Assembly (NCBI RefSeq): GCF_003334255.1
Contig: NZ_QOWU01000207.1
Strand: one strand, 5' to 3'
From: Escherichia coli
GTDB taxonomy: Bacteria; Pseudomonadota; Gammaproteobacteria; Enterobacterales; Enterobacteriaceae
Length of the DNA: 625 nt
The notes under the pieces were generated by a model. That model was not told the DNA's origin and made no database searches. It worked only from the letters and a program-made list of their open reading frames with translations. How positions within the stretch are numbered: position 1 is the stretch's first letter; each line of letters starts with the position of its first letter. A program made the translations under genes and the position numbers. Positions 1 to 625 of this stretch are shown piece by piece.

Positions 1-43
1 GTTTTCAGCCCCCATCATCTGTTGAGTTTCGGGAGCCGCGGTT

Positions 44-277
44 TTGACGTTTTGCGGGGACCTGCTCTTTGTTCCCTCCGGTATTCACCATCACCTGTTT
101 GAGAACCTTCGCCGCATGGGGCATCACTGCCACGGCCTGACGCACCTGTCCTGGGCAGAACGCAAAATTTTTTACCGGGTTTTGGGTAAAAAATTTTGTG
201 GGCTGTTCATTTACCCTGGACAGGTGCGGCAGGTTGTGGCTGTATCAGCCCCCGGCGACAGGGGCTTAAACAGGTGA
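44..277 (+). CDS. Hypothetical ORF (77 aa, His/Cys-rich), probably spurious
   Basis: From the ORF track. It has a TTG start at 44 with a possible SD-like GGGAG at 31-35 (8-nt spacer) and a TGA stop at 275-277. The product matches no family I recognise, and the ORF is spanned by the 88-bp compound palindrome at 141-228, which is atypical for genuine coding sequence. Confidence 0.12.
   Translation: MTFCGDLLFVPSGIHHHLFENLRRMGHHCHGLTHLSWAERKIFYRVLGKKFCGLFIYPGQVRQVVAVSAPGDRGLNR
141..228. repeat. Compound imperfect palindrome: outer 15-bp GC-rich inverted repeat (14/15 matches) enclosing the inner AT-rich palindrome
   Basis: Read directly: 141-155 CGCACCTGTCCTGGG pairs with 214-228 CCCTGGACAGGTGCG, with one mismatch at 152/217 (T/T). 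The outer symmetry axis is offset by 4 bp from the inner one, leaving asymmetric internal loops at 156-160 (5 nt) and 201-213 (13 nt). The element can form an 88-nt extended hairpin or cruciform on either strand. Confidence 0.75.
163..198. repeat. Perfect 14-bp inverted repeat with 8-bp spacer: CAAAATTTTTTACC - GGGTTTTG - GGTAAAAAATTTTG
   Basis: Read directly: arm 163-176 is the exact reverse complement of arm 185-198, and all 14 pairs (163/198 through 176/185) are Watson-Crick. Spacer 177-184 is asymmetric. Each arm contains the self-complementary octamer AAAATTTT (164-171 and 190-197). Pair 161/200 (C-G) also matches, and 162/199 would be a G-U wobble in RNA. The arms are 11/14 A+T in an otherwise GC-moderate context. 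Confidence 0.9.
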
Positions 278-456
278 ATGGCACCGGACACAACAACGGG
301 CAGGGACCCGCCGCAACGACGTGAAGCGCGGTTTGCGAAACGGCGTTGCGCCTTACATCCCGGCGTCTTTTTGCCGGGATGCCTGGAGCGCAGGCCACGG
401 CGCGACAGAGGCGGCGCGACCGGAACGGTCGCTGCAAGCCCGGGGTTTTCACGCAT
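211..456 (-). CDS. Hypothetical ORF (81 aa, Arg-rich), probably spurious; the reading frame stays open upstream to 612
   Basis: From the ORF track, with ATG at 456-454. By my reading the same minus frame is open from 612 down to 211 but has no ATG, GTG or TTG upstream of 456. It overlaps ORFs in the other frames. No recognisable domain. Confidence 0.12.
   Translation of the reverse strand: MRENPGLAATVPVAPPLSRRGLRSRHPGKKTPGCKAQRRFANRASRRCGGSLPVVVSGAIHLFKPLSPGADTATTCRTCPG
247..266. repeat. Short stem-loop: 6-bp stem AGCCCC / GGGGCT with 8-nt loop
   Basis: Read directly: 247-252 pairs with 261-266; loop is 253-260. A stem this short has weak significance in GC-rich sequence. Confidence 0.4.
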
Positions 457-600
457 CGGACCGTAGCGACAGCCCGAAACCGCGCCAGCGGGTTCGGCGG
501 AGACTGGCGGGTGCGCCAGCAGCTGCCTGTCGGAGTCGGGCCTGACGACCGGATGCCGCCAGGCAGCCGGGAGCCGAAGGTGCGCCCGGCAGACAGGACA
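301..600. other. GC-rich block (about 71% GC by hand count) with several short stem-loops and no clear codon-position GC periodicity; candidate structured non-coding region
   Basis: Hand counts of GC by position modulo 3: 66/70/70% over 301-450 and 76/64/78% over 451-600, which is weak or absent periodicity. Stems seen: 312-318/344-350 (7 bp), 356-364/373-381 (9 bp), 416-422/426-432 (7 bp, loop GAA), 504-509/514-519 (6 bp, loop GGTG), 566-571/585-590 (6 bp). All three plus-strand frames and two minus-strand frames are open across 320-450, as expected for GC-rich non-coding DNA. GC falls to about 48% after position 600. Confidence 0.35.
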
Positions 601-612: not shown

Positions 613-625
613 TCAGAATCAGAGC

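Follow-up and report, generated by a model that had tools for sequence, protein, structure and literature searches.

The 625-nt stretch of Escherichia coli DNA analyzed here (RefSeq assembly GCF_003334255.1, contig NZ_QOWU01000207.1; hereafter the window) is a copy of the dispersed Frpo (class 1) repeat, lying within the leading region of an IncF-type conjugative plasmid just upstream of ssb. The repeat carries a known single-stranded DNA (ssDNA) promoter hairpin. Beyond this hairpin are two small hairpins, Ha and Hb, and a multi-helix module of ~180 nt, designated B1. B1 is the subject of this work, and comparison of its copies points to DNA that is maintained for folding on the transferred strand.

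Genomic setting of the repeat

On plasmid p7_2.1 (locus L001, 12.6 kb), the window lies in the leading region and all neighboring genes are on its - strand. The gene order is an anti-restriction gene, DUF3560, a methyltransferase, the window, ssb, DUF905, a ParB-like gene, psiB, psiA, and hok. The ssb start is 22 nt to the left of window position 1. In a second locus, L003, traM and a transglycosylase gene lie beyond DUF932 and flank oriT. Leading genes are read with the transferred strand as template (PMC11541004). Since the neighbors are all on the - strand and oriT and traM lie beyond DUF932, the + strand of the window is the leading-gene template and enters the recipient 5' end first.

At the right end, positions 619-625 (-) are the end of a 76-aa open reading frame (ORF) that closes the upstream methyltransferase operon, with its stop at 621-619. 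The start of this ORF overlaps the methyltransferase stop as ATGA. B1 occupies the gap between the stop codon (619-621) and the promoter hairpin. Purine-rich hexamers, (CAGTAG)n or (GAAGAG)n, are found 3' of B1 and of the alternative module B2 described below (L001 6626-6700, corresponding to window 626-700, and equivalents), and their copy number varies among plasmids. On the - strand, they encode a poly-Leu tail of the 76-aa ORF, which may specify a genuine small membrane protein or be an artefact.

Hundreds of plasmids, IncF plasmids among them, contain the window sequence at 100% identity. A match is present in 3,831 of 5,426 complete E. coli genomes, almost always on plasmids and at a median of three places per genome; B1 is present in 2,950 of the same 5,426. 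Element copy number is about three per plasmid. In a plasmid collection, the best 5,000 matching records are mostly conjugative plasmids from Escherichia, Klebsiella, Salmonella, and Shigella. No match was obtained when a phage collection was searched with the window. Contigs assigned to Streptomyces morookaense (L008, L009) and metagenome-assembled genomes of Oscillibacter, Erysipelotrichaceae, and Collinsella (L010, L022, L023) also carry the repeat at 91-96% identity, which is likely contamination or mis-binning of public assemblies.

Two further features of these leading regions were recorded. In pEC958 (L002 277-2940), just left of window position 1, a group II intron (ltrA, - strand) splits ssb at its 5' end, directly downstream of the promoter hairpin. 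In L001, the Rfam family AS-pc01 (RF02875, 'antisense to pHK01_035') scores 109.6 bits at 9097-9194 (+), where it separates the third copy of the promoter from the first gene that belongs to it; + strand antisense RNAs thus exist in this leading region.

The first-pass annotation had marked positions 301-600 as a GC-rich island with a chain of stem-loops, possibly a structured RNA or a GC-rich repeat cluster. Its hand counts of GC content are borne out, with values of 0.525 for positions 1-200, 0.707 for 301-600, and 0.48 for 601-625. Mean GC of L001 is 0.575, and the only 300-nt windows in this locus with GC of at least 0.68 are the three copies of the Frpo-carrying repeat. The repeat cluster is a misreading. 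Tandem Repeats Finder detects no tandem repeats in the window, which instead belongs to a dispersed repeat of ~450-625 bp that carries the known Frpo promoter.

The promoter hairpin and the small hairpins Ha and Hb

The promoter hairpin is of the Frpo-type class 1 ('Frpo2/ssp1b'-equivalent) and spans positions 54-311 (+), upstream of ssb, in the consensus fold of 19 diverged copies, which contains compensatory pairs. Its inverted repeats are nested around position ~180. The minimum-energy fold in the window copy extends over about 20-341. The hairpin therefore takes up 301-311 of the island, at most to 341 (its first 10-40 nt), and the island does not start at 301 as a block of its own. As ssDNA, the whole window folds at -188 kcal/mol (z -11.5). 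A simple scan of the window as a duplex finds no consensus promoter.

The F plasmid copy upstream of ssb, Frpo2, is 93.6% identical over window 1-447, and Frpo1 is 90.5% identical over 1-448. Homology to F ends at 448, and positions 449-585 are outside F's repeat. Frpo is described as a 328-nt hairpin that rebuilds the -35/-10 boxes, turns on ssb and psiB early, and is also able to prime DNA synthesis (PMC9849209, PMC7690428). In the literature, transcription from an ssDNA promoter is known for F and pESBL. The homologous repeats of IncI plasmids are called 'ssi'; imperfect ~460-bp repeats were noted in IncI-type leading regions in 2013, and recombination between such dispersed repeats is documented (PMC3817090).

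Hairpin Ha (313-350, +), with the arms GCAACGnCG...CGnCGTTGC, is conserved in class 1 copies (alignment A4, columns 346-383). It contains one compensatory pair, which is CG in 16 copies and UA in 3 of the 19-copy alignment. Hairpin Hb (356-381, +) is a perfect 9-bp stem, 356-364/373-381, that is conserved in position and not in sequence. Hairpins unrelated to it are present at the same site in IncI plasmids (CACACC-gtca-GGTGTG), Citrobacter (ATCCCGTCGCC/GGCGACGGGAT), and Klebsiella (GTGCCGGC...GCCGGCAC). Hb is the stem that had been singled out in the first reading of the island. The pairing is exact, and yet it is the least sequence-conserved helix of the island, while the stems that had been put down to chance are the ones that carry compensatory changes.

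Several observations concern the repeat outside B1. A PGAP 'frameshifted single-stranded DNA-binding protein' pseudogene is called over the Frpo hairpin (window 5-210, -; L001 609-814 and 6005-6210). The call is also present over a copy that does not adjoin ssb and is probably an annotation artefact spread from mis-called proteins. In IncI ssi copies (L006 about 28230-28260 and 35270-35300; equivalents in L004), the left part of the repeat includes GGAGCGAAAGCTCC or GGGGCGAAAGCCCC. Both contain GCGAAAGC, a DNA mini-hairpin of great stability that also occurs in the origin of phage G4. Two short words are common to window positions 185-197 and 323-332 and to the F-G intergenic region of phiX174 (L034, 2310-2372), which holds the primosome assembly site. 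One word, GGTAAAAA(A)TTTT, is at the apex of the hairpin, and the other is the exact 10-mer GAAGCGCGGT. They do not occur in colinear order and could have arisen by chance.

Structure and covariation of module B1

B1 extends over positions 398-585 (+), as defined by alignment A3 and its RNAalifold consensus. A3 is composed of 25 distinct B1 copies with identities down to ~69%. A diverged Citrobacter copy (69% identity) served as a stepping stone to plasmids of Lelliottia, Klebsiella, Enterobacter, and Citrobacter. It came from a scan of genome contigs with the Hc motif, which otherwise returned a few true enterobacterial matches, chance matches, and contaminant contigs. A profile search identified 49 copies in the loci examined.

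The consensus contains 47 pairs in seven helices. P1 (398-401/573-576) shows no covariation. P2, also named Hc, pairs 411-422 with 426-439. P3 (456-463/537-545) is a long-range helix with three covarying pairs that encloses two hairpins, P4 (472-475/490-493), for which CCGAAAC/GTTCGG is an alternative pairing, and P5 (502-514/519-531). P6 pairs 549-557 with 562-570.

Across the 25 copies, 98.6% of cells are paired. Two-sided changes are observed in 20 of the 47 pairs, with 110 compensatory cells in total, and for several pairs three or four different pair types are seen. Of 500 column shuffles, none matched any of the measures of pairing or compensation, and sliding the 3' partners by 1-3 columns left at most four compensatory pairs. 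Several stems illustrate this. Hc is found as GCGACCG/CGGTCGC, GTGGCCG/CGGCCGC, GCTGCCG/CGGCAGC, GCAGCCG/CGGCTGC, and GCATCCG/CGGATGC. The lower stem of P6 occurs as CCGG/CCGG, CTGG/CCAG, CTGA/TCAG, and CCCG/CGGG, and in its upper stem TGCC/GGCA is swapped for CAGC/GCTG. In two copies, P5 is exchanged for an unrelated hairpin in which the T.T mismatch is kept.

Two motifs are conserved. Just 3' of Hc is the unpaired CTGCAAGCC (432-440, +), which is AGCAAGCG in Klebsiella lineages. At the 3' end of B1, the block GGAGCCGAAG contains CCGAAGG (574-580, +), a GAA-triloop DNA mini-hairpin sequence. The block is invariant in 25 of 25 copies with one exception, the final G of the heptamer (window 580), for which three copies of IncI type have T. 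CCGAAGG has been described as a mini-hairpin in the ssiA priming signal of RSF1010 (PMC13037366).

Between IncF plasmids and the IncI1 plasmid ColIb-P9, B1 is 93-97% identical, compared with 88.7% for the psiA-ssb coding block and ~77% for the promoter hairpin. By this measure of sequence identity, B1 is more conserved than the promoter hairpin beside it.

Two variants were seen within or at the edge of the module. In L003 (11345-11361 and 16821-16837, equivalent to window 415-431), the Hc loop is reverse-complemented (GAA to TTC) and the stem is unchanged. Such a change is the signature of a palindrome-mediated template switch and points to real extrusion of the hairpin. Insertions of ~2.3 kb are located exactly after GGAGCCGAAGGTGCGC at the 3' edge of B1 (window 585) in L003 (20285-22626), L008 (348-2689), and L022 (42-2378). 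Within the L003 insertion is ltrA, the reverse transcriptase/maturase gene of a group II intron, oriented along the + (transferred) strand. This suggests a homing site next to the folded module, possibly targeted as ssDNA.

The folded strand

Folding of the window sequence by itself does not discriminate between the strands. For positions 342-600, the fold z-score is -3.6 as DNA of the + strand and -3.4 as RNA of the - strand; for 398-586, the values are -2.2 and -2.4. Taken alone, the window sequence yields a chain of stem-loops that exceeds chance expectation only moderately. Judged with the comparative data, it is highly non-random.

The alignment does separate the strands. On the + strand, the wobbles of B1 amount to 87 G.T cells, spread over 15 pair positions of which 13 are variable; A.C is not seen in any cell. 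The reverse-complement alignment, folded independently, reaches -48.4 kcal/mol and 43 pairs, compared with -61.9 kcal/mol and 47 pairs for the + strand, and the deviations from its consensus are C.A/A.C mismatches. A covariance model of B1 was run on 18 loci, R100, and 68 kb of F. Every significant match is in transferred-strand orientation and is found only beside promoter hairpins. Because G.T occurs without A.C, the reverse complement folds worse, and the matches have one orientation, the folded molecule has the sequence of the + strand, which excludes an RNA in the sense of the mRNAs. Folded DNA is the economical reading, since the + strand is the one transferred and the element is always attached to ssDNA promoters. 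B1 is thus very probably a non-coding, structured module of the Frpo repeat on the transferred strand, its sequence being selected for folding as DNA. The earlier suggestion of a structured RNA was right about the structure, for which the 25 copies supply the covariation; it was less apt as to RNA, given that the + strand fold is that of the transferred DNA, that ssDNA fits better, and that no Rfam family covers the island.

Coding status and absent signals

The island is non-coding. Codon-position GC is flat, with values of 0.66/0.70/0.70 over 301-450 and 0.76/0.64/0.78 over 451-600; the first reading had called it flat over 301-450 and weakly periodic over 451-600. The accompanying statement that five frames are open is overstated. 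Two of the six frames are free of stops across 301-600, and the other four hold 1-2 stops each; what is spread over five frames is the long ORFs of the window. Two or more stop-free frames are also found in 24% of composition-matched shuffles of 301-600. No frame is open in all 25 B1 copies, which differ from the window by repeated 1- and 2-nt insertions and deletions that keep the fold. NCBIfam returned no family match for six ORFs of the window. PGAP annotates a 'hypothetical protein', WP_071606928.1, at 449-604 in the window (449-697 in full, -). Its frame is not conserved and it belongs to no family, and we judge it to be spurious. More generally, the 'hypothetical proteins' that PGAP calls across the island should be regarded as artefacts produced by its 71% GC.

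Rfam searches gave no family on the island. At permissive thresholds, the window yields sub-threshold microRNA-type noise on the hairpin only, and at gathering thresholds no hit in four loci overlaps the B modules. Between the upstream operon and the hairpin, scans for an intrinsic terminator (a GC-rich hairpin followed by a T/U run) gave chance-level matches only, and scans for a duplex sigma-70 promoter gave nothing above chance.

Modularity of the promoter flank

The three copies of the repeat in L001 align up to 448. Two of them continue near-identical to about 628; the third diverges but stays GC-rich. Across plasmids, a shared core is followed by one of two distal modules, B1 (window type) or B2 (F type). 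B2 is folded as well. Its long-range helix is GCGTC/GACGC, its internal hairpin contains a compensatory pair, and it again has the motif CCCCGAAGGGG, in which CCGAAGG recurs. The core of Hb, linker, Hc, and GCAAGC is also present in other intergenic regions of these leading regions.

B1 is not restricted to Frpo-type hairpins. In Citrobacter (L033 9291-9479) and Lelliottia (L025 9800-9970), it adjoins a long, non-homologous promoter-type hairpin with an A/T-rich apex. In the loci compared, the late-entering flank of the promoter regularly holds one of a small set of predicted structured modules. A terminator-like hairpin with a T-run (GCAGAGttcgcgCTCTGC TTTTTT) is located in L033 at 8917-8945 and in L025 at about 9441-9470 (+), between the promoter-type hairpin and the gene it would drive, and points against the leading genes.

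Proposed function

Overall, we lean toward B1 being the non-coding, transferred-strand flank of a class 1 ssDNA promoter with a boundary or accessory role; this wording is a compromise between the identity of the module and its mechanism. The mechanism taken separately, a cis-acting boundary or accessory of the promoter, is the likeliest of those considered but is proposed tentatively, as a model that may well be wrong. As the + strand enters the recipient, the promoter hairpin (54-311) would be followed on its late-entering 3' side by the two small hairpins and B1. B1 would act as folded ssDNA in the minutes before complementary-strand synthesis. The upstream operon is without an intrinsic terminator and would itself be transcribed from a single-stranded template. 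According to Masai & Arai, as cited in PMC7690428, the transcript tends to stay hybridized to such a template, so RNA-hairpin terminators may work poorly there. An SSB-resistant folded block could separate the end of the upstream operon from the promoter hairpin. It may prevent the hairpin from being melted by SSB or by RNA polymerase that reads through, or it may hold a host factor there; B1 would in this way shield or re-nucleate the promoter hairpin. Because the unpaired motifs are invariant, a specific protein partner appears likelier than an effect of mere stability. One candidate binder, HerB/YfjB (a ParB-like protein), has reported ChIP-seq sites that are chromosomal, and the accessible part of the source does not link it to this element.

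A broader proposal, which we hold nearly as plausible as not, is that B1 and B2 represent an unrecognized class of sequence-specific folded ssDNA elements working with conjugative ssDNA promoters. They could serve for protein docking (primase/primosome, RNA polymerase, helicase, or an anti-defense target) or for transcription termination on an ssDNA template. The promoter would then be a two-part device of which one part has gone unnoticed.

Several points weigh against a folded-DNA flank with a boundary role. An RNA of the + strand would show G.T wobble as well, and a pure insulator would need no invariant unpaired motifs. The 25 copies represent a few clades, so that the cell counts overstate the number of independent compensatory events. 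Both B1 and B2 are missing from some copies of class 1 (IncI ssi1 type). In F, which has B2 and not B1, conversion to double-stranded DNA is not measurably delayed across ssp1b/Frpo2 (162 s upstream, 155 s downstream), and a role as replication roadblock is therefore unsupported, at least for B2.

Alternative explanations

Of the other explanations, the one that survives best, though it is unlikely, is that B1, or else the core formed by Ha, Hb, and Hc, serves as a single-strand initiation signal (a primase-dependent 'G site' or primosome loading site) at which the complementary strand is primed without RNA polymerase. Only the transferred strand has the fold, and the order of three hairpins followed by CTGCAAGCC resembles hairpins III-II-I of G4, alpha3, and St-1, which are followed by CTGC(A/T)AAGCC with the primer start at CTG. 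In B1, however, the CTG is CAG in about half of the lineages, the Klebsiella-type copies among them. B1 has the CCGAAGG mini-hairpin sequence of RSF1010 ssiA. Against a priming signal, its copies adjoin promoters only and are not spread along the plasmid. Rifampicin does not abolish complementary-strand synthesis of F, so RNA polymerase-independent priming exists somewhere; it does abolish early conversion downstream of ssp1a and ssp1b. Given this sensitivity of early F conversion, an efficient rifampicin-resistant primer site at the shared core is disfavored. The B1 covariance model found no match in phiX174, G4, or the R100 replicon region, which presumably holds the 'G site' of R100, and no priming-site homology in these or in 68 kb of F. 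For a phiX174-type primosome assembly site, there are only the two short word matches to the F-G region mentioned above.

It is improbable that B1 is a structured non-coding RNA of the + strand, antisense to the leading genes and made once the plasmid is double-stranded. B1 does show covariation with G.U-type wobbles, its multi-branch fold is typical of RNAs, and AS-pc01 is an antisense family elsewhere in the leading region. A bona fide DNA hairpin, however, shows the same bias; in the 19 Frpo hairpin copies, ~17 pair positions have G.T and ~6 have A.C. B1 matches no Rfam family, is always attached to ssDNA promoter hairpins, and contains the DNA-type CCGAAGG triloop motif. In the two lineages scanned, no sigma-70-like promoter or terminator is present on the + strand nearby.

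A functionless GC-rich spacer, homogenized by recombination or gene conversion between dispersed repeats, would account for the near-identity of copies within one plasmid and for modules that are mosaic between plasmids, and recombination between such repeats is on record (PMC3817090). Gene conversion leaves unexplained the compensatory changes that six helices show across lineages only ~69% identical, as well as the one-sided G.T bias and the invariant unpaired motifs, and this explanation is very improbable.

The position of B1 directly after the last ORF of the methyltransferase operon, together with the z-score of the - strand over 342-600, would suit an RNA element of the - strand, such as a 3' untranslated region, terminator, or stabilizer of that operon. 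It can hardly be credited, because all 13 variable wobble positions become A.C mismatches, no hairpin is followed by a U-run, and the upstream genes before B1 differ among plasmids. Small proteins, for which the ORFs of 51-88 aa annotated in many records and the two stop-free frames might speak, have a negligible claim when no frame is open in all 25 homologues, the indels keep the fold, codon-position GC is flat, no NCBIfam family is matched, and open frames are expected by chance at 71% GC.

Relation to known systems

The repeat and its promoter hairpin are already known, and we could not find a description of the distal structured module, which is apparently undescribed. The literature on Frpo and the class 1-3 promoters contains none, with the qualification that 1990s primary papers were not covered and an early mention is possible. 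Full-text searches for B1 sequence strings returned no relevant paper, and the two longest strings had no match in the papers listed.

B1 shares its repeat unit, strand, leading-region context, and folding as DNA on the transferred strand with the Frpo/ssi class 1 promoters of F and ColIb-P9 (Masai & Arai 1997, Couturier 2023, Wen 2025). It differs from Frpo in being outside the 328-nt hairpin, multi-branched, and devoid of a promoter-like hairpin. It is absent from F and is also found beside a non-homologous promoter hairpin.

The G sites of G4, alpha3, and St-1 are likewise GC-rich hairpin clusters, resistant to SSB, on ssDNA followed by a CTGC(A)AAGCC-type motif, and SSB resistance is predicted for B1. 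The covariance model detects no homology to them in sequence or structure, and the CTG of B1 is not present in all lineages. The RSF1010 signals ssiA and ssiB, which direct the RepB' primase, act only as ssDNA and have the CCGAAGG heptamer in common with B1. Each is a single 40-nt hairpin, however, and is recognized by a plasmid primase that IncF plasmids lack.

The ssoA and ssoU origins of rolling-circle plasmids are also non-coding, ~150-300 nt long, highly folded, and specific for strand and orientation. They are active solely in the single-stranded intermediate, including after conjugative entry. B1 has no homology to them; the RSB and CS-6 signatures are not conserved, and TAGCGA is present only in some B1 copies. 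The ssp2 hairpin of F (Fraikin et al. 2026 preprint) is a folded transferred-strand structure of the leading region; it modulates how polymerase advances and keeps the promoter active for longer. There, the roadblock is the promoter hairpin itself, whereas no extra delay was observed across the class 1 promoter with its B2 flank in F.

Significance

Thousands of 'hypothetical protein' annotations over copies of the island are flagged by this analysis as probably spurious. The ssDNA promoters of leading regions drive the burst of anti-defense functions and SOS inhibitors that lets resistance plasmids establish in new hosts. These promoters have so far been treated as single hairpins, and here a second module, supported by covariation, follows the hairpin. 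If B1 is needed, whether for promoter function, insulation, or priming, constructs and deletions would call for a new definition of the minimal functional unit. The module could then explain how transcription units are kept separate on a single-stranded template, and it would be a conserved cis target through which the establishment of plasmids could be blocked.

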